Assembly (NCBI GenBank): GCA_050250875.1
Contig: JBFWNV010000010.1
Coordinates: 22,221-86,220 of the forward strand
Direction: 5' to 3'
Length of the DNA stretch: 64,000 bases
Source of the DNA: Vicinamibacterales bacterium
Lineage (GTDB): Bacteria; Acidobacteriota; Vicinamibacteria; Vicinamibacterales; UBA2999
A program made the translations under genes and the position numbers. Position 1 is the stretch's first letter. Every line of letters starts with the position of its first letter. The notes beneath the pieces are model-generated. The model had not been told where the DNA came from. It saw only the letters and a list, made by a program, of their open reading frames with translations, and ran no database searches. Positions 33,283 to 55,080 of the stretch are shown here, one piece after another.

Positions 33283-33328
33283 TTGCCGGCGGGTAACCAG
33301 GCGACTATACTCTGAAACGAACGTTACA
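33283..33328 (+). promoter_or_regulatory. Sigma-70 promoter plus operator-like palindrome of the chrB-like gene
   Basis: TTGCCG (33283-33288), 17 bp, TATACT (33306-33311); TGAAAC-GAAC-GTTACA (33313-33328) reaches the ATG. Confidence 0.6.
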
Positions 33329-34434
33329 TGACCAAGACGCCCGCCGCCCTGGCCCCGCCCAGGGCACCGCTCCGCCCGGCGCCGGCCGCGGCCACGCCGC
33401 GCTGGCTGCTGTTCGTGCACCAGCTGCCGGCCACGCCCTCGAACCTGCGCGTCCGCACCTGGCGGCGGCTGCAGCAGATCGGCGCCCTGCCGGTGAAGCA
33501 GGCGGTGTATGCGTTGCCCGACTCGCCGGCCGCGCGCGAGGACTTCGAGTGGCTGCGCAGCGAGGTCAAGGGCTCGGGCGGCGACGCCACGGTGTTCGTC
33601 GCCGACGCCGTCGATCGCTGGACCACCGACGCCCTGGTGGACGAGTTCCGGCGGGCACGGCAGGAGGCCTACGCGGCGCTGGCGGCCGACATCGACCAGG
33701 CGCTCGGCCGGGTCGCCGCGAAACGGCGTCCGCGCGGCACCCGGGCCCCGGCGGTCGGCCGCCTCGCCGACGGGTTCCGCGAGCGGCTGAGCGCGCTCGA
33801 GCGCATCGACTTCTTCGGCAGCGCCGGCCGCGACCGCGTCGTGTCGCTCCTGGCGCGGCTCGACGAGAAGACGCGGCGCGGCCGACCGGCCGCCGCCGCG
33901 CCAGCCGATGCCGGGCCGCTCGACCGCGCCGACTACCTGGGCCGGCTGTGGGTGACCCGCCCGCGCCCCGGCGTGGATCGCATGAGTTCGGCGTGGCTGA
34001 TTCGCCGCTTCGTGGACGGCCAGGCGCGCTTTGCGTTCGCCGCCGATCGCGAGAGCCTGCCGTCGGCGGCGGCCCTGCCCTTCGACATGTTCGGCGTGGA
34101 GTTCAGCCACCACGGCGACGACTGCACCTTCGAGACGCTGTGCCGCGTGTTCGGCATCGACGAGCCGGCCGTGGCCCGCATCGCCGCCATCGTCCACGAC
34201 CTCGACCTGAAGGACGGCCGTTTCGGCGCCGCCGAGGCCGCCACCGTCGGCGCCCTCATCGACGGCTTGCAGCGCGCGACCGACGACGACGGGCTGCTGC
34301 TCGAGCGCGGCATCACGCTCTTCGAGTCGCTCTACCAGTCGTTCGGGCACGCCGAGCGCCCGCCGCGTCCACGCGCCGTCGCCGGCACGCGGTCCACGCG
34401 TCGCGGCCAGGGGCCGTCCCGCCGCCAGCGGTAA
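33328..34434 (+). CDS. chrB: ChrB family chromate-resistance regulator-like protein
   Basis: N-domain WLLFVHQLP..RVRTWRRL...DFF; C-domain WVTRPRPGVDR..SAWLIRRFVD...PFDM...FSH...CTFE...IVHDLDLKD. Confidence 0.8.
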   Translation: MTKTPAALAPPRAPLRPAPAAATPRWLLFVHQLPATPSNLRVRTWRRLQQIGALPVKQAVYALPDSPAAREDFEWLRSEVKGSGGDATVFVADAVDRWTTDALVDEFRRARQEAYAALAADIDQALGRVAAKRRPRGTRAPAVGRLADGFRERLSALERIDFFGSAGRDRVVSLLARLDEKTRRGRPAAAAPADAGPLDRADYLGRLWVTRPRPGVDRMSSAWLIRRFVDGQARFAFAADRESLPSAAALPFDMFGVEFSHHGDDCTFETLCRVFGIDEPAVARIAAIVHDLDLKDGRFGAAEAATVGALIDGLQRATDDDGLLLERGITLFESLYQSFGHAERPPRPRAVAGTRSTRRGQGPSRRQR

Positions 34435-42160: not shown

Positions 42161-43414
42161 GTGACGCCGACACCCACGAATACCACGGACCACGCCGCCA
42201 CGCTCGCCCGCCTCGACGCCTGTGTCCGCGGACTCAGGTCCGAGATCGTCGCCTTCACCGAAGCGCTGGTCAACGTCGCGTCCGAGAATCCGCCGGGCGT
42301 CGCCTACGGCGAGTGCGTGCGCCTCATCGAGACGCACCTGCGCGGCCTCGGGCTGCCGGTCGAGCGCGTGCCGTTCCGCCCTCGGCGGGGCCGCGGCGAC
42401 GGCTCCGAGGCCGCGGTCGTCGTGAGCGGCGTCGGCACGGGCCGCCGCACGCTGTACTTCTCGGGGCACTACGACGTCGTGCCGGTCTCGCGGCCAGGCC
42501 AGTGCCGGGCGGAGCGGCGCGGCCCGGCGCTGTTCGGGCGCGGCACGGCCGACATGAAAGGCGGGCTGGCCGCCATGACCTATGCCGCCGTGGCCTTGCG
42601 GCGCGTCGGCGTCGCGCTCGACGGCCGGGTCGCGCTGGTCTTCGTCCCCGACGAAGAGACGGGCGGCGCCCGCGGCTCGGGCTTCCTCGCGGCAACCGGA
42701 CGGCTCGGCCGCAACGGCATCGGCATGCTGACGCCGGAGCCGACCAGCGGCGTGGTGTGGAACGCCAATCGCGGCGCCATCACCGTGCGCGTCACGGTGC
42801 GCGGCCGCCAGGCGCACGTCGGGCTGATGCACCAGGGCCGCAACGCCTTCGAGGACGCGATCGAGGTCGTCGCGGCGCTGCAGGCGCTGCGCCGGCGCGT
42901 CGGCCGGCGCCAGACGCGCTACCGGCTCGTGCCCGCGGCGGCGCGCCGCTCGCTGATGCTGATCGGCGGACGGGTCGAGGCCGGCAGCAACTTCAACGTC
43001 GTGCCCGACGTGTGCACCTTCACGGTCGATCGGCGCATGAACCCGGAGGAGGACTTCTCCGCCGAACGCGAGGCGCTGTTCGACGTGTTCGCCCGGGCAC
43101 GGCGGCGAGGCCTCGCGCTCGACGTGGAGGTGCTGCAGGAGGGCCAGCCGTCGGGCAGCGACGAGAGTGCGCCGCTCGGTCGGTCCCTGCGCGATCAGGT
43201 GCGAGCCGTGACCGGCCGGGCGCCGAGATTCGAGATGTGCCCGGGCCTGCTGGAAATCCGCTTCTACGCCGCGCAGGGCATGCCCGCGTACGCCTATGGG
43301 CCCGGGCCTCTGGCCGTGTCGCACGGCCCGCGCGAGTTCGTGCGCATCGATCGCCTGGTCGAATGCGCAGCGGTCTACGCGCGGACGGCGGCGGCACTGC
43401 TGATCCGCAGCTGA
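42161..43414 (+). CDS. M20 family ArgE/DapE-like deacylase
   Basis: GHYDVVP, GRGTADMKGG, PDEETGG, NVVP, YGPG...HGPRE. Confidence 0.9.
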   Translation: MTPTPTNTTDHAATLARLDACVRGLRSEIVAFTEALVNVASENPPGVAYGECVRLIETHLRGLGLPVERVPFRPRRGRGDGSEAAVVVSGVGTGRRTLYFSGHYDVVPVSRPGQCRAERRGPALFGRGTADMKGGLAAMTYAAVALRRVGVALDGRVALVFVPDEETGGARGSGFLAATGRLGRNGIGMLTPEPTSGVVWNANRGAITVRVTVRGRQAHVGLMHQGRNAFEDAIEVVAALQALRRRVGRRQTRYRLVPAAARRSLMLIGGRVEAGSNFNVVPDVCTFTVDRRMNPEEDFSAEREALFDVFARARRRGLALDVEVLQEGQPSGSDESAPLGRSLRDQVRAVTGRAPRFEMCPGLLEIRFYAAQGMPAYAYGPGPLAVSHGPREFVRIDRLVECAAVYARTAAALLIRS

Positions 43415-43442
43415 CGGAAGCCCGGCGCCGTTCGGCGGCGAC

Positions 43443-43829
43443 TCACAGCGCCTGGCCGAACCCGAGGACGTGGCCGTCGCAGTCGCGTACCGCGAACTCG
43501 AGCATGTGATACGCCTCCTGGCGCACCGGGCCGTAGACGATCGTGGCGCCGGCGCGTCCCAGCTCCTCGCACAGGGCCGCGGCATCGCTCACCCAGAAGA
43601 AGGCGTCCCAGGTGCCGCCCTGCGATTCCATCGGCCGGACGGCCGCGGCGTCCGCCACCCGCCGCAGCATCACGGCGAGGCCGTCGCGGGCGCAGATCGC
43701 GAACTGGGCCGGCACGCCGGCGAGGTACTCGGTGCGGAACCCGAGCACGCGGGCGTAGTAAGCGGCCGACACGTCCACGTCGGCCACCGGGAAGTAGGGG
43801 GCGCTTCGCAACAGTGTGGCCGTGCCCAT
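43443..43829 (-). CDS. VOC/glyoxalase family protein
   Basis: VADVDVSAAYY..LGF; EFAVRDCDGHVLGFG. Confidence 0.8.
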   Translation of the reverse strand: MGTATLLRSAPYFPVADVDVSAAYYARVLGFRTEYLAGVPAQFAICARDGLAVMLRRVADAAAVRPMESQGGTWDAFFWVSDAAALCEELGRAGATIVYGPVRQEAYHMLEFAVRDCDGHVLGFGQAL

Positions 43830-43869
43830 CGCGATCCTCCCTCGAGTCGGCGTCCTGCGCCGGCTCGCG

Positions 43870-44925
43870 TCAGTCTCCGGCCGGCTTCCGGTCGAGCGGC
43901 TTCAGGGTGACCGTGAAGCTGAACGGCACCCTGGCGGGGTTGAAGCACACCTTGTCGTCGCAGGCCTGGTACTCGAGGGCGCCGCTGATCGTCGCCGTCG
44001 GCATCGCGCCGAGCACCTTCTGCATCTCCGGCGTGGCCAGCAACGTGAAGTCGCGCTGCAGCCGGAACGGCCTGGTGTAGACCTCGACCCGTTCGTCGAG
44101 CGGCTCGAAGTGGTAGATCTCCGACGCCGGGTAGACGGTGTCGTGGGCGCGCAGCCACGGCTGGGGATCGAGCCGCAGCGTGACCACCTGATAGTCGTGC
44201 GTCCCCGGCGCATACAGGTGCATCGTCGGCCGCGGCGTGACGTCGGCGACGATGCTCAGCCGATGGCCGGGGGCCGCCACCGCGTCGCTGATGCGCGCCG
44301 ACATCGTGAGGTGGTCGGTCCGCGAGGTGGCCGGCGCACCGGCGGGCGCGGCGCCGATCGTCGCCAGAATCGTCGCCGCGGTGTAGCGCTCCTGGTAGGC
44401 GTCCTCGAAGAAGCGGGCCACCACCGTGCCCTTCGGGTCGAGGATGAACGTGCCGGGATGCGGGATGCCGTAGGCGCGGGTCTGTGGATCGACGGTTGTG
44501 TTGAACAGCCCATAGCGCTTGATCGCCGCCGAGCCGGGGTCGGAGAGCAGCGGAAACGTGATGCCCCGCGAGTCGGCGAACTTCTTCAGCGTCTCGGGCG
44601 GATCGTAGGTGATGGCGACGAGGCCGAGGCCCTGCGCCTTGATGGTGTCGTAGCGGCTTTGCAGCTCCACGAGCTGCGTCTTGCAGTACGGTCACCAGTC
44701 GGCCGAACGGCTGAACACGAGCATCAGCCCCTTCGGCCCCGACAACGTCGCCAGCGACTGGGCCGTGCCGAACTGATCGGTGCCCGACAGCGGCGGCACC
44801 ACCGTGCCCACCTGCGGCCCGATCGCCGCGGTATCGACCGCGGGTGCGGGCGATTGGGCGCGGCCGACAGCCGGGGCGGCACTCAGCAGGGCGACCATCG
44901 CACCCGCCGGCAAGAGTCGCTTCAC
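43870..44925 (-). CDS. Exported AhpC/TSA-like selenoprotein (UPYC) fused to a DsbD-N-like domain
   Basis: ORFs 44692..45006 and 43870..44670 share one frame, separated by a single TGA (44692-44694): FSRSADW-U-PYCKTQLVELQ. SECIS-like hairpin follows; C-terminal YQACDDKVC; signal peptide. GTG start inferred. Confidence 0.85.
44661..44677 (-). promoter_or_regulatory. Bacterial SECIS-like hairpin
   Basis: mRNA GCAGCUC-GUG-GAGCUGC: perfect 7-bp stem with a G-containing loop, starting 14 nt after the UGA. Confidence 0.7.
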
Positions 44926-45048
44926 GATCACCAGGACCACCTTTCGCACGGACGAGCCGGGACCCGAGGTCCGCGTCGCGCCGTTGCGCACTTGGATGAT
45001 ATCCACGGCGCGCCGGATACACCGCCACCTCGGACGGCCGCCGCCCGC

Positions 45049-46392
45049 CTACATCGCATGGCGGATCGGCCGCAGCGAGAGGAACAGCGCGACGCCCGGC
45101 CGCACGCGGCCGCCGTAGCGCGGCGCCAGCTCGGCCGGCACCAGGCTGAGGGCCACCGACCCGCCGATGCCGGGCACCAGCCCCTGGCGCGCCGGGAACT
45201 GCCGGACGTAGCCGGCCTGCACCTTGCCGAGCGGCAGGACCAGCCGGGCGTACTCGTGCGCGTGCAGGTGGTGCGCGGGCATCGCCGCCAGCTCGGTGCG
45301 GCCGAACAGCGTATGCCGGCCGCTCGCCAGGGTCAGGCTGCTCTCGATCAACGCGGCGCTCGACACGGCGTCGAGCACGCCGCTGGAGAGCTGCTCGCGG
45401 GCGCGGTTCACCCCCAACGCGATCGTCGTCGCCCACAGGCCGCGGTCGCCGTGCGGCCGATGGTAGATGGCCGAGGCGGTGAGGTGGGTCCCGGCGGGCT
45501 CCGCGGGCTGGACGAACGCCGACCGGGCCACGCGCATCCGCGCCGCCGACACCTGCACGGCCAGGCGGTCGGTGGGCAGGAAGGACACGCGGGTCGAAAC
45601 GGCGTCGAGGCTGCCCAGATCCAGATCGGCCCGCCGCTCGTCGGGCGATCGGCTGTTGAAGATCGAGGCCTCGGTCTTCCAGCGGCGCGTGTGCGCGCCG
45701 AGCGTGACGACCCCGAACGCCACGTGGGTCGCGTCGAGCCAGTGGTGCGACACCGGCGCCACCGGGTTGGCCACGGCCGACGGCCGGTGCGCGTAGCTGG
45801 TCGGCCCGAATGCCGGTTCGCCGGCGAGTGCGGCGTAGATCTGCCAGCGCCACGGGCCGCCGAGCGGCGCGTCGTAGTCGGCGGCCAACTCCATCACCAG
45901 ATCGTGCGGCTGCTGGCGATCGTGAATGGTGTCGTTCTCGCAGACCTCGCCGGTCGCGAAGTAGTTCAGCGAGCCGCAGTCGGTGACGGTCCACGGCTCG
46001 GCACTCAGCATCGTGCGGACGCCGATCCGGCCGGTGCCGACGTTGCGCCGCGCCATCGCCATCCCCCAGTTGACGCTGCCGGCCTGACGCGCCGCCACGC
46101 CGCCGGTTCGATGCCGGTCGCCGGGCTCGTAGAGGAACTGCACGAACACCGCGGCGTCGAGCCGGACGTCCCAGCCCCGCCAGTCGCGATGGACGCCGTA
46201 CATCGGCGTCGTTTGCGGCATCCAGGCGGTGCCGGAGAAGTCCGTCGGCGGCGTGAGGAGCGTTCCGGCCACCTCGACGTGCTCGTGGACCTCGGCCGGA
46301 GGCGCCGGCGGCTGCGGCTCCTGTGCCGCCGCGGCGGAACCGCCGCAGGCGAGCAGCGTCATCCCGAGCACGGCCAGCCGCCGCCCCGGCAT
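45049..46392 (-). CDS. His-rich envelope (probable outer-membrane) protein of the copper cluster
   Basis: Signal peptide with LLAC; SGTAWMP, HDRQQPHD, SHHWLDATH, HHLHAHE; alternating beta-strand pattern; start overlaps the TBDR stop. Confidence 0.7.
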   Translation of the reverse strand: MPGRRLAVLGMTLLACGGSAAAAQEPQPPAPPAEVHEHVEVAGTLLTPPTDFSGTAWMPQTTPMYGVHRDWRGWDVRLDAAVFVQFLYEPGDRHRTGGVAARQAGSVNWGMAMARRNVGTGRIGVRTMLSAEPWTVTDCGSLNYFATGEVCENDTIHDRQQPHDLVMELAADYDAPLGGPWRWQIYAALAGEPAFGPTSYAHRPSAVANPVAPVSHHWLDATHVAFGVVTLGAHTRRWKTEASIFNSRSPDERRADLDLGSLDAVSTRVSFLPTDRLAVQVSAARMRVARSAFVQPAEPAGTHLTASAIYHRPHGDRGLWATTIALGVNRAREQLSSGVLDAVSSAALIESSLTLASGRHTLFGRTELAAMPAHHLHAHEYARLVLPLGKVQAGYVRQFPARQGLVPGIGGSVALSLVPAELAPRYGGRVRPGVALFLSLRPIRHAM

Positions 46393-48552
46393 CAGAAATC
46401 CAGGCGCACGCCGCCGTTGATGGCCCGGCCATCGAGCGGCGCCCACGCGTCCACCGTGAGGCGGCCGTCCGGACCCGGGTGCGGTCGGAGCAGGCGGTCC
46501 CAGCGGGTCTGTCGTACGTCCGTGACGTTCTCGGCGTTGATGAACACGCGGACCCGTCCGACGCGGCGCTCGGCCAGCATACCGGCGATCACGTAGGGAC
46601 GCGACTGGTCTCGATACGGATTGACCTCGAGGCGCTGGCGACCCGTGTAGTACAGCTCGAGGCCGATCCGTCCGGCGTCCTCGGCTTCCCACATCCCGAC
46701 CAGCCCCGCGCCGTGCCGCGGCGTGAGTTCGGCGTCCTGCCGGCGGGCGCGCTTCGCCCTCGCGCGACCGCACGTAGGTGTAGCTGGTGGTGGCCACGTA
46801 GGGCCCGCGACGCCACGTGCCGAGCAGCTCGAGTCCGGCGTTGGTCGCGGCGGCGGACTCGTTGAACAGGACGAACGCGTCGGCGCGCTCGACCCGCAGC
46901 GGATCGACGATGCGCGACCCGAAGACGGTCGCGGTGGCCGTGCCCCACGGGAAGGTGCGGGTGAGATCGATCGACGCGCTGGTGCCGCGTTCCGCCTTCA
47001 GCGGACCACGGATGGTCAACCGCGACAGGCCGGCGGCCTCGGTCTCCTCGGTGAGCGGCGTCGCCGCGAAGAACCCCTGCCCCACCGACGCCCGGCTGGT
47101 CCACGCCCCCGAGCGCAGCAGCGCCGACACCCGCGGGCTGAAGAACGTGCCGTACTCGCTGTGATGGTCGACGCGGCCCCCGCCCGACACCGCCAGCCAC
47201 GGCGCCGCCTGGATGTCGGCCTGGGCGAACGCCCCGGGCACGTCGTAGGTGTAGGCGAACTGTCGGACATCACGCGGCCGGTAGGCATCGCGCTCGTAGG
47301 CGACGCCGGCCACCCAGGTGGTCGGGCCGGCCGCGCCACGCAGGGCCACCTCGGAGAAGACATTGCCGTAGCGATCGCGCTCGCGCGCCGCCCCGAACGT
47401 GTGATCGTGCCGCTGCCAGGTGGCGGAGCCCCGCGCCGTGAGCACGAAGCGGCCGCCGACGAGCGTCTGGACATGCCCCCCGACGTCGTAACGGCGCGTG
47501 TCGAGCGCCTCGCGGTAGGCCGCGCCGGTGGCCGGCAGCACGGCATCGTCCATCGTGCCGCCCTCGCGGTCCTCCCAGGTCAGCCCGGCGGTGAGGAAGG
47601 CCGATCGACCGCCGCCGCCATCCCAGAAGGCACGCGGCCGGACGACGGCGCGCCGATAGCCGGCCAGATCGGCCCACCCGTCGTCGTCGCGGTCGTTCTT
47701 CATCTGGCCATGGCCGCCGGCGAGCAGCGATCCGCTCCATCCCTCGCGCGCGCCCGACGACAGAAACATCACCGCATCGGTGGCGCCCAGCGTCGAGGCA
47801 TTGAGCAGGACGTCGTAGGCGGGCTCGCCGCCCGGACGCCGCGACAGCAGGTTGACCACGCCGCCCATCGCGCCGGCCCCGTAGAACGCCGACGCGACGC
47901 CCTTGATCACTTCGACCTGGCCGAGATCCATCGGCGGGATCTGCAGCAGGCCGAGCCCGCCCACCTGCTGGCCGAAGAGCGGCAGCCCGTCGCTGAGAAA
48001 GCGGGTGTAGCGGCCCTTCATGCCCTGCACGCGCACGCTGGCGGCGCCGATCGAGGGCGACGTCGCCTGCACGCGCAGCCCACCCATCTCGTTGAGCATC
48101 ATCACGATGTCGCCCGGCGTCATCAGCAGCTTCTCTTCGATCTCCTCGCGGCCGATGACCTCGACACGGGTCGGCTGATCCTCCAGGCGGCGGCCGGTGC
48201 GGGTGCTGGCGACGACGACGACCTCCTCTTCGATCTCCGGCTGTTCGGAGAGCTCGACCTCGAGGGTCGCGGTCTGGCCGGCGGCGACCTGGGCCTCGGC
48301 TCGAGCGGCGACGAAGCCGTCCTTGGTCACCACCACACGCACGGCGCCGGCCGGCACGTCGAGCACCGCCGCGCCGTCGTCACCCGTCTCGGCCGTTCGC
48401 TCGGCCACCGTCACTGAGGCATCGGCAACCGGCTCGCGCTCGCTCCGCACGACGACGCGGAGTCGGCCGCGCGGCTCCTGGGCGAGGGCGTCAGCCGGAG
48501 ACACGAGCAGCCAGATGGCCAACAGCCGGCCGACCGCCGCGACCGACGTCAT
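46392..48552 (-). pseudogene. TonB-dependent receptor with a single frameshift near 46745 (real or assembly error)
   Basis: Plug motifs (VEVIKG.ASAFYGAGAMGGVVN) lie in one frame; the C-terminus (ELTPRH...FINAENVTD...GGVRLDF*) lies in another. Span 2161 bp = 3n+1. Confidence 0.8.
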
Positions 48553-49313
48553 CGACGCGATGCCCGGGAGACCGATCCCTCGTGCGAGCTCGAAGCGCGC
48601 CGGAGCAGCACGACGCCGGCGCACACGGCCATGAACGCCAGCACGTGCGCCACCGCGAACGGACCGACGAGCGGCTGGCGCCAGCGCAGGAACTCGATGC
48701 CGAAGCGCACCAGTCCCGTCGAGACGAGATAGGCGCCGAGCACGAACGCGTCCGGCCGGCCCTGCCCTCGCCAGCGCTGCAACAGCCAGGCGATCGGCAG
48801 CAGCGCCACCGTTTCGTAGAGCTGCGTCGGATGGACGGGCACCGTCGTCGGCGGCAGTCCTTCGGGGAACGCGACCGCCCACGGCAGGTCGCTCGGGATG
48901 CCGTAGTCGTCGCCGACGAGGAAACAGCCGATGCGGCCGATCGCGTGTCCCAGGGCGAGGGCCGGCGTGGCCGCGGCGACGACGGCCACGATCGACAGCC
49001 GATGCCGGCGCAGCATCACGATGCCGGCGAGCAGGCCGCCGGCGAGGCCGCCGAACCAGCTCAAACCGCCGCGCGACAGCAGCAGTTCGAGGAAGGGGCC
49101 CTCGCGCCCCGCGTGCTCGAGGGCCCACACCAGCTTCGCCCCGGCCAGGCCGCCGACCACACCGGCCATGGCGGCATCGAGCGCGCCCTCGGGAAGTCCG
49201 GACCGCCGGCGTTCGCGGTCGAAGACGTAGATGCCGACGGCGGCGGCGATGGCGACGAGGACGCCGAAGCTGGTGACCTCGTACTCGCCGATCCGGAACA
49301 GGACGGGAATCAC
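48549..49313 (-). CDS. lgt: Prolipoprotein diacylglyceryl transferase family protein
   Basis: GGLSWFGG, IGRIGCFLVGDDYG, VHPTQLYE, RFGIEFLR; 4-bp overlaps on both sides. Confidence 0.8.
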   Translation of the reverse strand: MIPVLFRIGEYEVTSFGVLVAIAAAVGIYVFDRERRRSGLPEGALDAAMAGVVGGLAGAKLVWALEHAGREGPFLELLLSRGGLSWFGGLAGGLLAGIVMLRRHRLSIVAVVAAATPALALGHAIGRIGCFLVGDDYGIPSDLPWAVAFPEGLPPTTVPVHPTQLYETVALLPIAWLLQRWRGQGRPDAFVLGAYLVSTGLVRFGIEFLRWRQPLVGPFAVAHVLAFMAVCAGVVLLRRASSSHEGSVSRASRR

Positions 49314-50194
49314 ATCCAGAACCTTACGCCAAGTGTCAGCCGTGTGCTGCTCGTGCGCTCGCCGGCGGCTTCGGCGCGGTCGGCGGTGCCGAAGAAGCGG
49401 CGGTTCCAGACCACCCCGACGTAGGGCGCGAACTCCCGCTTGAACTCATAGCGCAGGCGGACGCCGAGGTCGGCAGTGGACAGCCCGGTGCCGATGTGGC
49501 GTTCGGGGTCGGAGCGGCCGTAGATCTCGAACTCGACCAGCGGCTGCAGCACGAGGCGGTTGGCCAGCAGCAGGTCGTACTCGGTCTCGACCCGAATGTG
49601 GGAGCGGCCCGAGACGTCGAGGTAGGCCGAGGCTTCGACCTCGAACCAGTACGGGGCCAGGCCCTGCACGCCCACCGCCAGCGCTGTACGCGGGGTGCCG
49701 GGCAACGTGTCGAGACGGATGCCGGCCGTCGCGTCCCACCAGCGCGAGATGGCCCGGCCGTAGAGCAGATGGGTCTGCGCCTGCTCGGTGCGGCCGCCGG
49801 CGCGGTCGCCCTCGGTGCGGAACCAGAACCGGTGGCGGTCCTGGCCGATCCACCCCTTGGTGTCCCAGCTGAAGGCGTCGTCGCCGCGGCCCGCCTGCCA
49901 TTCGAACTGGTCGAACAGCACGAAGTAGTTGATGGCCGTGTCGTGCACGGCATGGCCCTGCACGTCGGGGAACGCGGCCTGCCGGTCGGCGTCGGTGACC
50001 GGCGGAATGAACTCCGGCAACGACACCGGCGCCGGCGGCTGGTGCGCCGAGTGGTCTTCGGCGGGCGGCGGAGGCGGCGGCGTCTGCCCGTGCTGGTGCG
50101 GCGGTTCCGGGCTCGGTGTGGGCGTCTGCGCCTGCGCGGCGAACGGATCCGCCAGCATCAGCAGCGCCACGAGACCGGCAGCGGCTGGCGTCAT
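49310..50194 (-). CDS. copB: Copper resistance protein B
   Basis: LFDQFEW, GVQGLAPYWFEVEA, LRYEFKREFAPYVGV, GVRFW; His/Pro-rich N-terminus. Confidence 0.92.
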   Translation of the reverse strand: MTPAAAGLVALLMLADPFAAQAQTPTPSPEPPHQHGQTPPPPPPAEDHSAHQPPAPVSLPEFIPPVTDADRQAAFPDVQGHAVHDTAINYFVLFDQFEWQAGRGDDAFSWDTKGWIGQDRHRFWFRTEGDRAGGRTEQAQTHLLYGRAISRWWDATAGIRLDTLPGTPRTALAVGVQGLAPYWFEVEASAYLDVSGRSHIRVETEYDLLLANRLVLQPLVEFEIYGRSDPERHIGTGLSTADLGVRLRYEFKREFAPYVGVVWNRRFFGTADRAEAAGERTSSTRLTLGVRFWM

Positions 50195-52035
50195 GACGTG
50201 CGGCCCTCGTCGACGCGCACCTCGCGGAACATCCCGGCTTCCATGTGGAACAGCAGATGGCAGTGATACGCCCAGCGGCCGAGGGCATCGGCGGTCACCC
50301 GGTAGCTGCGCCGCGCCCCGGGCGGCATGTCGATCGTGTGCTTGCGCACCTTGAAGCGCCCCTGGTCGTCCTCGAGATCGCTCCACATCCCGTGCAGGTG
50401 AATGGGGTGCGTCATCATCGTGTCGTTGACCAGGACGATGCGGACGCGCTCGCCGTAGGTCAGCCGCACCGGCTCGGCGGCCGAGAACTTGACGCCATCG
50501 AACGACCAGGCGAAGCGCTCCATGTGGCCGGTCAGGTGCAGCTCGATCGTGCGGGTCGGCTCACGGCCGTCGGGATCGGCGAACGTGCTGGTCAGGTCGG
50601 CATAGGTCAGCACGCGCCGGCCGTTGCCGCGCAGGCCGATGCCCGGGTCGTCGAGCTTGGCGGTGGGCGACGTCGTCTGCATGTCGACGAGCGGATTGCC
50701 GGCTTCGGTCGGCGGGTGGGCCTGGGTGGCACCGCCCATGGTCGACATGTCGTGGCCGGCGTGAGGATCGGCCGCGACCGGCGGCGGCATCGCGTGGCCC
50801 GCATGCGGGTCGTCCGCGGCGGGCGGCGGGCTCGGCATCACGTGGCCCGCGTGAGGATCGGCGGCGGCCGGGACGGAAGGGGTCGGCGCGGCGCCCGCGT
50901 CGTGACCGGCGTGGCCCGCATGGCCCATGTCGGTCATGGTCAGCACCGGGCGCGGATCCACGTCCGGCACCGGCGCCGACAGGCCGGCGCGGATGGCGAG
51001 CGTGCCGGCGGCAAAGCCGGTGCGATCCATCGCCTGCGCGAAGATGGTGAACGCCTCCTGGCCGCTCGGCTCGACGACGACGTCGAAAGTCTCGGCCACG
51101 GCGATGCGGAACTCGTCCACCGTCACCGGGCGCACCGGCAGTCCGTCGGCGGCCACGACGGTCATCTTCAGCCCCGGAATGCGCACGTCGAAGTACGACA
51201 TCGCCGATCCGTTGATCAACCGCAGCCGCACCTTCTCGCCCGACGCGAACAAGCCGGTCCAGTTGCCCGCCGGCGTCTGCCCGTTCATCAGGTAGGTGTA
51301 GGTGTAGCCGGTGACGTCGGCGAGATCGGCGGCGCTCATGCGCATCTCGCCCCACGCCTTCCGCTCGGCCAGCGTCGCGCCCAGACCGCGCTCCCGCACG
51401 TCGCGCAGGAACGTGGCCAGCGTGCGCTGCCGGAAGTTGTAGTAGTCCGACTGCTTCTTGAGCTTCTTGAAGACGCGCTCGGGATGTTCGTCGGTCCAGT
51501 CGGTGAGCATCACGACGTGCTCGCGATCGACCTGGAACGGCTCGGGCTCGCGGGGCTCGATGATCAGCGGACCGTACACGCCCTGCTGTTCCTGGAACCC
51601 CGAATGGCTGTGGTACCAGTAGGTGCCGTGCTGCTTCACCGTGAAGCGGTAGCGATACGACTGGCCGGGATGGATGCCCGAGAAGCTCAGCCCGGGCACG
51701 CCGTCCATGTTGGCCGGCAGGATGATGCCGTGCCAGTGAATCGACGTGTCCTCGTCGAGCCCGTTGGCGACGTCGAGGGTGATCGTGTCGCCCTCCTTCC
51801 AGCGCAGCAGCGGCCCCGGCAGCGAGTCGTTGATGGTCAGCGCGGTGCGCGGCCGGCCGGTGAGGTTGACGTCGGTCTCGCCGATCCGGAGGCTGAACTC
51901 CGTCCCCGACAGCACGCCTGAGTCGCGGCGCGCCCGTGACTGCGCCCATGCCGGCTGACGCAGCAGGCCGACGCTGGCGGCCGCGCCACAGGTGGCGAGG
52001 CCCTTGACGAACGTCCGTCGCGACGGTCGGTCCAT
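50191..52035 (-). CDS. copA: Copper resistance multicopper oxidase CopA/PcoA (Tat)
   Basis: SRRTFV Tat motif; HWH, HSH, HPIHLH and HCHLLFHM copper motifs; His/Met-rich insert. Confidence 0.95.
   Translation of the reverse strand: MDRPSRRTFVKGLATCGAAASVGLLRQPAWAQSRARRDSGVLSGTEFSLRIGETDVNLTGRPRTALTINDSLPGPLLRWKEGDTITLDVANGLDEDTSIHWHGIILPANMDGVPGLSFSGIHPGQSYRYRFTVKQHGTYWYHSHSGFQEQQGVYGPLIIEPREPEPFQVDREHVVMLTDWTDEHPERVFKKLKKQSDYYNFRQRTLATFLRDVRERGLGATLAERKAWGEMRMSAADLADVTGYTYTYLMNGQTPAGNWTGLFASGEKVRLRLINGSAMSYFDVRIPGLKMTVVAADGLPVRPVTVDEFRIAVAETFDVVVEPSGQEAFTIFAQAMDRTGFAAGTLAIRAGLSAPVPDVDPRPVLTMTDMGHAGHAGHDAGAAPTPSVPAAADPHAGHVMPSPPPAADDPHAGHAMPPPVAADPHAGHDMSTMGGATQAHPPTEAGNPLVDMQTTSPTAKLDDPGIGLRGNGRRVLTYADLTSTFADPDGREPTRTIELHLTGHMERFAWSFDGVKFSAAEPVRLTYGERVRIVLVNDTMMTHPIHLHGMWSDLEDDQGRFKVRKHTIDMPPGARRSYRVTADALGRWAYHCHLLFHMEAGMFREVRVDEGRTS
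50747..50860 (-). repeat. Three DPHAGHxM peptide repeats in CopA
   Basis: DPHAGHVM, DPHAGHAM and DPHAGHDM separated by Pro-rich spacers; DPHAGH also occurs in the CusB tail. Confidence 0.7.
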
Positions 52036-52141
52036 GATCCGACATCCCTTCCGAACACGGCGCGACCACACGGGCCGCGGCAATTGCCGACTACCAGACC
52101 TGGAGGCAGAACCGGGGCGGGAACGCCCCGTGACCGCGGGA

Positions 52142-52615
52142 TCAGATCCGCAGAACGGCGGGCGTGCGAGGCGGAGAGGGCGGAGTGGGCGGTGGAGCGG
52201 TAAGGCGCGGACGCGTCTCCGGGAGCCAGATGACGGCGGCCGAATCGTGAGCGGTGAGCGTCGCCAGCAGCGCCTGCGACTGCGGGTTCTGCCGCAGCGG
52301 CGCAACGGCTGGCACGGTCGTGGCGACGCCGTCGGCGCAGCACTCGTCGCACGCCGCGGTCCACTGCCCCGAGGTCGCCGGCGCGGGCGGTACGGCCACC
52401 GCGTCGGCGTGTCCCATGGCGTCGTGGTCGTGAGCCGCGGCCGCGGCAGCTGGCACTGCGGCTGTCGGCACAACGCCACCTGGCCCGCCGTCGAGTCCGG
52501 CGTGACCGGCGGTCGGCGGCAGGCACAGTGTCACGCACGCCGACAGCACGGCCGGCGCCCCCGCGAGGGTGAGCACCGTCACGAGGGCCGCGACGCGCCC
52601 GACCATTGCCATCAT
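52142..52615 (-). CDS. CopL/CutF-like Cys/His leader protein upstream of copA
   Basis: Hydrophobic N-terminus, CVTLC, HDHDAMGH, CDECC, Pro-rich tail ending PAVLRI*; TATACT at 52619-52624 just upstream. Confidence 0.7.
   Translation of the reverse strand: MMAMVGRVAALVTVLTLAGAPAVLSACVTLCLPPTAGHAGLDGGPGGVVPTAAVPAAAAAAHDHDAMGHADAVAVPPAPATSGQWTAACDECCADGVATTVPAVAPLRQNPQSQALLATLTAHDSAAVIWLPETRPRLTAPPPTPPSPPRTPAVLRI

Positions 52616-52647: not shown

Positions 52648-55080
<2,433 letters not shown>

Follow-up and report, generated by a model that had tools for sequence, protein, structure and literature searches.

A predicted selenoprotein joining a redoxin to a DsbD-N-like domain in Vicinamibacterales

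This report concerns a 64,000-nucleotide stretch of contig JBFWNV010000010.1 (assembly GCA_050250875.1) from a Vicinamibacterales bacterium of the phylum Acidobacteriota, referred to here as the window, and one gene on its minus strand that contains an in-frame TGA codon. Judging from the sequence comparisons described below, this TGA is almost certainly decoded as selenocysteine (Sec or U). It is likely that the gene encodes an exported selenoprotein of about 351 residues, which would act as an envelope thiol-disulfide reductase and would carry a DsbD-N-like domain fed by DsbD.

The mechanism that we envisage is as follows. The UGA at 44692-44694 would be read as Sec by SelA, SelB, SelD and tRNA-Sec, with a 7-bp hairpin 14 nt downstream helping in the decoding, and the protein would leave the cytoplasm by means of its putative signal peptide. 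The W-U-P-Y-C site of the redoxin domain, together with a cis-Pro-type loop, would make Sec the exposed nucleophile of a CxxC-type motif. Electrons would pass from the single membrane DsbD of the genome to the DsbD-N-like domain and from there, possibly between subunits, to the Sec-Cys site. This site would then reduce oxidized thiols of envelope proteins, probably as part of a metal or oxidative stress defense in which copper may have a place.

A single reading frame across a TGA codon

Under translation table 11 the gene appears as two open reading frames (ORFs), one of 104 amino acids that ends ...SRSADW (44692..45006) and one of 266 amino acids (43870..44670). Both are in the same frame and are split solely by the TGA at 44692-44694. 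When that codon is read as U, a single minus-strand frame of 351 codons results, which reads ...LMLVFSRSADW-U-PYCKTQLVELQ... and is terminated by a second TGA (43870-43872). Homologues align from around KRLLP, and therefore the likely start is GTG 44925 (or GTG 44931); GTG 44925 gives a protein of 351 residues in which Sec is residue 78. The N-terminus from GTG 44925, MKRLLPAGAMVALLSAAPAVGRA/QS, looks like a signal peptide. Ahead of the mature part, each of the 28 aligned members of the family has a hydrophobic stretch (a Kyte-Doolittle mean of at least 1.6 over 10 residues), and residues 1-26 have a predicted local distance difference test (pLDDT) value below 50 in the AlphaFold2 model. A preliminary description of this DNA, made from its letters, had pointed to one frame broken by TGA at SADW-TGA-PYCK, a signal-peptide start, a C-terminal YQACDDKVC and a 7-bp hairpin with a GUG loop 14 nt past the TGA. 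These elements are all present, YQACDDKVC at 43945-43971 and the others at the positions given in Table 1, with the signal peptide a prediction from the hydrophobic stretch.

Table 1. Coordinates of the selenoprotein gene, its parts and some of its neighbors, numbered from the first letter of the window.
Feature	Position	Strand	Basis
Full coding sequence of the predicted selenoprotein	43873..44925	minus	One frame with TGA read as U; full-length alignment with 27 homologues; AlphaFold2 model
Signal-peptide-like N-terminus (MKRLLPAGAMVALLSAAPAVGRA; cleavage after GRA guessed by eye)	44857..44925	minus	Hydrophobic stretch in 28/28
In-frame TGA, predicted selenocysteine codon (residue 78)	44692..44694	minus	TGA/Cys column in homologues
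Redox motif U-P-Y-C after invariant Trp	44683..44694	minus	Invariant residues in 28 sequences; AhpE alignment
SECIS-type hairpin GCAGCUC-GUG-GAGCUGC	44661..44677	minus	Fold, energy, pairing in Sec versus Cys forms
Thioredoxin-fold AhpC/TSA (redoxin) domain	44416..44811	minus	Pfam PF00578; structural matches AhpE, BCP, ResA
DsbD-N-like immunoglobulin-fold domain	43933..44274	minus	Pfam PF11412; Foldseek nDsbD, ScsB-N
Conserved Cys pair C322-x4-C327 in YQACDDKVC	43945..43962	minus	Invariant in 28/28 and 26/26 sequences
Upstream neighbor, 447 aa	45052..46392	minus	Translation; gap of ~125 nt to the selenoprotein start
CopB	49310-50386	minus	Pfam CopB
Multicopper oxidase	50191-52479	minus	Pfam Cu-oxidase 1/2/3
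Copper P-type ATPase	52648-55080	minus	Pfam E1-E2_ATPase, HMBD and YHS

The strongest evidence for decoding comes from the relatives. Searching 60 related genomes and the bacterium's own (61 in all) in six frames yielded 30 full-length or near-full-length loci, and the column that aligns with the TGA holds TGA in 20 of them and TGC or TGT in the other 10. One of the Cys forms (L048) stems from an unpublished genome (G030), and two others (L045 and L046) have degenerate C-terminal ends. A second sample, which overlaps the first, was drawn from a collection of species-representative genomes, where 515 stretches encode a relative. Among the best 80 loci of that collection, 52 have TGA, 23 have a Cys codon (13 TGC and 10 TGT) and five could not be parsed by the motif. 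The expectation that homologues would carry Cys or Sec at this position is therefore borne out in both samples.

The codon itself is TGA, and not TGC or TGT, in contigs assembled from other public runs. One contig spans 44677-45100 with 0 differences (X4, record 16) and another, from a different study, spans 44659-44703 with 0 differences (X5, record 20), while the contigs of run X3 break at 44688/44696 and so do not bridge the TGA. In all three DNA metagenome runs the summed contig depth rises 5- to 15-fold over 44636-44723, the stretch that holds the active site and the hairpin, and contigs break there; this rise would fit many related organisms sharing a near-invariant nucleotide stretch.

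The genome also has the means to insert Sec. In this assembly (5.9 Mb in 79 contigs, 97.5% complete), selA (524 bits), selB (316 bits over two matched parts), selD (353 bits) and tRNA-Sec (65.7 bits) all score above their curated cut-offs, so that the four components which the preliminary description wanted to see are present, and ARAGORN calls the tRNA as SeC with anticodon tca. The selD gene itself (L010, G000:C1:1266441-1267358, minus) has an in-frame TGA (...SCAG-U-ASK...) with its own stem-loop directly after it. Under table 11, ordinary Pfam matches are found for 20 of the 45 ORFs that were scanned in the surroundings of the gene, and a genome-wide reassignment of TGA is thus not indicated.

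Bacterial selenocysteine insertion sequence (SECIS) elements are judged by a G in the loop and by their distance from the UGA. The hairpin in our gene, GCAGCUC-GUG-GAGCUGC at 44677-44661, has seven perfect base pairs, begins 14 nt 3' of the TGA and has an energy of -10.1 kcal/mol when folded in isolation. Its GUG loop is the start codon (GTG 44670) that ORF callers pick for the 266-amino-acid ORF. The 20 Sec forms from the first sample have 97.9% of their pair cells paired and two compensatory pairs (C-G to A-U in L036 and G-C to C-G in L047), values that are equaled by one of 500 shuffles. By comparison, the 10 Cys forms, the majority of which still encode the QLVELQ peptide, have 71.4% of the cells paired and 0 compensatory pairs, and 270 of 500 shuffles do equally well. 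The wider sample gives the same picture: all seven pairs are intact in 45 of the 52 Sec forms and six of the seven in the remaining seven, whereas the 23 Cys forms have seven intact pairs in two cases, six in five, five in nine, four in five and three in two. Several of the Cys forms encode the identical QLVELQ peptide with synonymous codons that disrupt the stem; because the peptide is kept while the stem is lost, selection acts on the RNA and is tied to the TGA. A few Cys forms with either TGT or TGC (L077 / P0002, L145 and L051) still have a perfect 7-bp hairpin, which would fit a recent replacement of Sec by Cys.

Some results at the level of the RNA count against this reading. Perfect 7-bp hairpins with loops of 3-8 nt are frequent in GC-rich DNA and occur by chance in the window at about 0.002 per base, and for a given TGA the chance that one starts in an 18-nt span behind it is about 4%. 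Taken by itself, the hairpin is thus weak evidence, and the case rests on the comparative data from the relatives. The z-score of the hairpin within a 66-nt fold is only -1.69. An Rfam scan of 44500-44800 (E <= 10) found no SECIS family and gave two chance-level matches, the best of which was to an unrelated family (E 0.08). In addition, a scan of 43400-45300 found 0 promoter-like and 0 terminator-like sites, and a run labeled metatranscriptomic, whose RNA status is a guess, contributed a single 217-nt contig (44710-44926) that we did not use as evidence of expression.

The most direct alternative is that translation really ends at the TGA, or that the codon is a lesion, so that the gene is either broken or yields a peptide of 77-104 residues plus a 266-residue protein from GTG 44670. 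Gene callers do report two table-11 ORFs, 117 of the best 120 public matches are 262-276 residues long, and the gene's own terminal stop is also TGA. Nevertheless, this explanation is very improbable. The TGA occupies the catalytic Cys column in 20 of 30 homologues and in 52 of the best 80, in many genera and with the frame intact on both sides, and the hairpin is kept selectively in TGA forms. The truncated product would have neither the active site nor the signal peptide. In addition, the genome has a complete set of Sec machinery.

Two further observations concern the family as a whole. A paralogous subfamily (L048-L051 and further places) has an insertion of about 25 residues (...EEALGPNGKDPAV...) within the redoxin domain and includes both TGA and Cys forms. 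Eight public metagenome-assembled genomes (MAGs) that contain a copy of this Acidobacteria-type gene (L074, L081, L082, L088, L103, L116, L136 and L140) are titled Bifidobacteriaceae, Bifidobacterium, Dehalococcoidia, Acidimicrobiia or Betaproteobacteria, and they look like mislabeled bins.

Two fused domains and a probable source of electrons

The N-terminal half of the protein matches the Pfam family AhpC-TSA (PF00578) with an E value of 2e-28 (99.2 bits against a cut-off of 26) and includes the motif U-P-Y-C. The full-length AlphaFold2 model, built from a 28-row alignment, has a pLDDT of 90.8 and a predicted template modeling score of 0.85, and the best structures that Foldseek finds for the N-terminal domain are AhpE, BCP and ResA. 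W77, C78 (U in our protein), P79 and C81 are invariant among 28 sequences. In a residue alignment with AhpE, Sec78 corresponds to the Thr of the peroxiredoxin TxxC motif and Cys81 to the peroxidatic Cys. The position of the Arg that is conserved among peroxiredoxins is taken by a Pro within the sequence GIPHPGTF. Two elements of the catalytic definition of a peroxiredoxin (PxxxT/SxxC plus Arg) are therefore replaced, Thr by Sec and Arg by Pro. The alignment and the invariant Trp together indicate the active-site layout of a CxxC-type thiol-disulfide oxidoreductase rather than that of a canonical peroxiredoxin.

A different view would be that the protein is a periplasmic selenocysteine peroxidase, in which Sec directly reduces hydroperoxides as in glutathione peroxidase or PrxU. 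The selenenic acid would then be resolved through the neighboring Cys, and recycling of the site would fall to the DsbD-N-like domain. Such an enzyme would resemble the envelope peroxiredoxin PprX, which is fed by ScsB/TlpA in Caulobacter. AhpC/TSA is the best Pfam family, and AhpE, BCP and other peroxiredoxins are among the best sequence and fold matches. Sec is a good nucleophile toward peroxides, which also favors this view. In addition, PMC3322552 describes an envelope peroxiredoxin that is reduced by way of a DsbD-like system. Set against this is the position of Sec, which takes the place of the Thr in TxxC rather than that of the peroxidatic Cys, along with the loss of the Arg. The W-C-x-x-C context and the GxPxPGTF loop are also features that we take to be typical of ResA/TlpA-type oxidoreductases, the NCBIfam score for ResA (41.6 bits) is about equal to that for BCP (40.1 bits), and the PrxU model reaches 19 bits against a cut-off of 270. 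We therefore consider a peroxidase unlikely and prefer the thiol-disulfide reductase.

Neither group of models is close to claiming the protein. The scores for ResA (cut-off 170), TlpA (14.4 against 230) and DsbE (14.2 against 123) are below their cut-offs, as are those for the selenoprotein models, namely the SelL-related redox model (43.8 against 120), WAxxUGC_long (16.5 against 300) and PrxU. No curated NCBIfam model covers this selenoprotein family.

The C-terminal half matches Pfam DsbD_N (PF11412) by a narrow margin, with 25.2 bits in the full protein against a cut-off of 25, and with 28 bits when the domain is taken alone. The match recurs in 25 of 26 homologous C-terminal domains (E <= 0.01, best 1.1e-10). 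Modeled alone, the domain has a pLDDT of 92.8. Foldseek matches it to the N-terminal domain of DsbD (nDsbD) from Neisseria or E. coli and to the N-terminal domain of ScsB, which together account for 12 of the first 15 rows listed, with template modeling (TM) scores on the target of 0.37-0.64. The top matches are 6dps, 1l6p, 6dnv, 1vrs_C, 1jzd_C, 1z5y_D and 6c29 (E 6e-5 to 6e-4). A profile of the domain searched against the sequences of solved structures gave a chance match only (E 0.24). The Tyr, the Gln and both Cys residues of YQAC-x4-C are invariant (28 of 28 and 26 of 26 sequences), and the pair may be redox active. The selenoprotein has no match to Pfam DsbD_TM. Thus Pfam and Foldseek both support the suggestion that a thioredoxin-fold UxxC domain is joined here to a DsbD-N-like domain.

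The genome encodes one DsbD (DsbD_N, DsbD_TM and Thioredoxin_7), located on another contig, and this is the only protein there with a DsbD_TM match. When the two domains were docked as separate chains, taken from a natural Cys form that is 75% identical to the selenoprotein, they scored 0.90 against 0.14 for the best control, with a partner pLDDT of at least 88; this mark is reached by 58 of 80 solved complexes and by two of 110 mismatched pairs. The interface names residues that flank C-P-Y-C and the conserved C-terminal tail. Since the two chains are halves of one protein and solved complexes of nDsbD with thioredoxin-fold partners exist, this result shows packing or likeness and not function.

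Other aspects of these results weaken the case for electron transfer within the chain. The docking runs agree in at least 0% of their contacts, and one of the three runs scored 0.48. The Cys pair of the C-terminal domain is absent from the named contacts, and therefore the geometry of a relay within one chain is not supported by the docking. There is also no adjacent CcdA or DsbD gene in the window or in the loci of 20 relatives, as judged from 162 of the 196 called ORFs plus three extra ones. Of the one-chain electron relay put forward in the preliminary description, what stands is that the two domains are predicted to pack together, with the C-terminal Cys pair outside the named contacts; transfer between subunits, or transfer after a domain movement, is possible.

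These points bear on another alternative, in which the C-terminal domain is not an electron carrier at all. It would instead be a module that binds a substrate or a metal, for example Cu(I) through the Cys pair, or a bufferin partner, and another reductant would recycle the Sec. The missing Cys pair in the predicted interface would agree with this, as would the moderate TM-scores to nDsbD (0.57-0.64 on the target) and the spacing of the Cys residues, which is x4 here and presumably x5 in E. coli nDsbD. The family also recurs near copper-defense loci, and a stand-alone paralogue of the domain exists. However, DsbD_N matches nearly every member, the Foldseek rows mentioned above are mostly nDsbD or ScsB-N, and the invariant YQxC...C motif lies at what we take to be the position of the nDsbD redox pair. 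A binding module thus seems improbable to us, and a role for the DsbD-N-like domain as electron carrier is the interpretation that we retain.

The stand-alone paralogue just mentioned is a protein of 193 residues encoded elsewhere in the same genome (L153 8014-8595; G000:C4:14037-14489, minus), and it is 55% identical to residues 218-368 of the 379-codon reading P0001. Its gene sits between a pyrophosphatase gene and an Omp85-family gene, near a response regulator and a histidine kinase. Many relatives have similar stand-alone DsbD-N-like copies, and in some relatives the full-length selenoprotein occupies a neighborhood that resembles that of the stand-alone paralogue.

Gene neighborhood and a possible link to copper

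On the minus strand of the window, reading from high to low coordinates, the genes are those for an RND (resistance-nodulation-division) pump, a copper P-type ATPase, a multicopper oxidase, CopB, Lgt, a TonB-dependent receptor, a 447-amino-acid protein, the selenoprotein and a glyoxalase-family protein. The selenoprotein gene had been placed at the end of a copper cluster, and the cop genes are indeed found further upstream on the same strand. The 447-amino-acid neighbor, between the receptor and the selenoprotein, has a signal-peptide-like start (MPGRRLAVLGMTLLACGG...) and matches no Pfam family at E <= 1.

The receptor gene appears to change frame. Its plug and barrel are in a long ORF (45049-49128) that turns into low-complexity junk past about residue 790, and a typical receptor C-terminus (ending ...INGGVRLDF) is a separate 100-amino-acid ORF in a different frame; the regions concerned are 46392-46694 and 46700-48450, minus. 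The cause may be a frameshift or an assembly error, or the gene may be a pseudogene. About 10 kb from the selenoprotein gene, a gene of the ChrB family (chromate resistance regulator) is followed by one for a major facilitator superfamily transporter (33328-34434), which adds to the metal-related content of the window.

The neighborhoods of the relatives do not share the arrangement around the cop genes, which counts against a copper role tied to this cluster. In a tblastn search of 12.5-19-kb loci from 20 relatives, homologues of the 13 window neighbors, copper genes included, were not found, apart from one unrelated match; the query for the 447-amino-acid neighbor in this set was void because it was mis-framed. 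The relatives' neighborhoods are heterogeneous in the ORF scan mentioned above, which covered the loci other than L072. They hold phosphate uptake and two-component genes (five loci), pairs of extracytoplasmic function (ECF) sigma and anti-sigma factors, pyridine-nucleotide disulfide oxidoreductases, DUF6526, a second redoxin, arsenic-type genes and a chromate transporter. In some relatives (L055 10279-11091 and 8755-9165; L065 8083-9021) the selenoprotein gene is flanked, on its own strand, by genes for another AhpC/TSA-type redoxin and for a small cytochrome c.

A different connection to copper comes from MbnB. Operons of DUF2282, MbnB (DUF692), DUF2063 and DoxX genes are described in PMC11626156 as encoding bufferins, which are copper-protective periplasmic peptides regulated by SigF/NrsF in Caulobacter. 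MbnB-family genes are present in 11 of the 60 relatives, and in seven of these 11 (G001, G002, G006, G008, G026, G029 and the unpublished G030) one is located at most 8 kb from a family member, although this count overstates the number of independent events because related genomes are not independent. The distance is below 2 kb in G006, G008, G029 (in two places) and G030; it is 32 kb in G017, and the two genes are on different contigs in G007, G012 and G035. In G006 the genes for DUF2282, MbnB, DUF2063 and the selenoprotein follow one another in the same orientation, genes for an ECF sigma factor and for NrsF are close by, and in one genome the fusion is found at the operon position held by DoxX/BufD in Caulobacter. 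The genome described here has neither an MbnB nor a DUF2282 gene.

The earlier proposal that the protein protects thiols under copper stress thus stands in part: linkage to the window's cop cluster is seen in 0 of the 20 relatives' loci, and a bufferin-type MbnB gene is near a family member in seven of the 11 relatives that have MbnB. We regard it as a reasonable possibility, though one slightly short of even, that the protein acts in envelope redox stress linked to copper or metals. A bolder hypothesis, which we offer tentatively and with less conviction, is that in the Vicinamibacterales the Sec-dependent fusion of a redoxin and DsbD-N would be a dedicated copper-defense reductase of the envelope. 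It would be recruited to bufferin operons or cop clusters, be fed by DsbD, and either undo copper-driven thiol oxidation or keep the metallophore or its targets reduced.

Known relatives, public annotation and significance

The preliminary description also held that standard pipelines would split this gene, and this is what has happened. In public protein sets, 117 of the best 120 matches start after the TGA and are the 262-276-residue fragments referred to above, named 'redoxin domain-containing protein' or 'hypothetical protein'. The others among the best 120 include two full-length Cys forms and one record that reads the TGA as Trp.

To call the protein hidden was an overstatement, since UxxC selenoproteins of the AhpC/TSA type have figured as a family in the literature from 2004 on. 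In PMC13188914 and PMC9312934, 'Prx-like thiol:disulfide oxidoreductase' (PF00578, UxxC/UxxU) is a high-confidence predicted selenoprotein family credited to Kryukov & Gladyshev 2004, and a 'Redoxin family protein' (PF08534, UxxC) is tabulated as a selenoprotein as well; this PF08534 row of PMC13188914 may be the same family as ours. A 2006 survey (PMC1794560) lists eight Prx-like members and, in Acidobacteria, three selenoprotein families. The selenoprotein is a member of this known Prx-like kind with an added DsbD-N-like domain. It shares with the others an AhpC/TSA-type thioredoxin fold, Sec as the first residue of UxxC, Cys homologues and a SECIS hairpin directly after the UGA. It differs in its putative signal peptide, its C-terminal domain and its occurrence in MAGs of Vicinamibacterales/Acidobacteriota; the prototype of the Prx-like kind is a Geobacter protein. 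Our literature search turned up no paper that describes the DsbD-N fusion, its distribution among Vicinamibacterales or its proximity to bufferin genes, although supplementary tables, which lay outside that search, may list the fusion. The main text of the bufferin landscape paper does not contain redoxin, AhpC, DsbD, thioredoxin or Acidobacteri.

Other known proteins resemble one half or the other. TlpA, ResA and CcmG are exported thioredoxin-fold proteins with a W-C-x-x-C-type site in which the nucleophile comes first, with a Pro loop in place of the peroxiredoxin Arg and with an expected donor of the DsbD type. They differ in having Cys rather than Sec at the first position, and in being free of a fused DsbD-N-like domain. 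Our gene has no cytochrome c maturation context, and the TlpA, ResA and DsbE models, as noted above, score far below the cut-off. The peroxiredoxins AhpE and BCP (PrxQ) give the best matches for the N-terminal domain in sequence and structure, but the catalytic Thr and Arg are not conserved and Sec stands at the Thr. The N-terminal (alpha) domains of DsbD and ScsB share with the C-terminal half an immunoglobulin-like fold, the Pfam family DsbD_N and the conserved YQxC...C pair; here, however, the domain forms the C-terminus of a redoxin and has no DsbD membrane domain beside it, its Cys residues are spaced x4 and the similarity is moderate.

The Scs system (ScsB, ScsC and ScsD) of Salmonella and its relatives is alike in outline, with a DsbD-like electron source, a thioredoxin-fold reductase and a link to copper stress. 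That link is stated in PMC10907172 and in a 2026 bioRxiv preprint on ScsD. The homology to Scs is limited to shared folds, there is no Scs operon here, and for our protein the copper link comes from the gene neighborhood only.

For a specialist the surprise is modest, because a UxxC redoxin selenoprotein with a standard bacterial SECIS is of a well-known kind. Nearly all of the public copies, on the other hand, are shortened and have neither the signal peptide nor the catalytic Sec-x-x-Cys, and this biases both the predictions of function and the selenoproteome counts for the phylum. The protein is widespread in soil Acidobacteria and offers a case in which envelope use of selenium by aerobic soil bacteria can be tested. 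A link between selenium and copper tolerance is suggested by the fused DsbD-N-like domain and by the recurrence of copper-defense loci near the gene. If a dedicated role in copper defense is true, these bacteria would have a selenium-requiring arm of copper tolerance.

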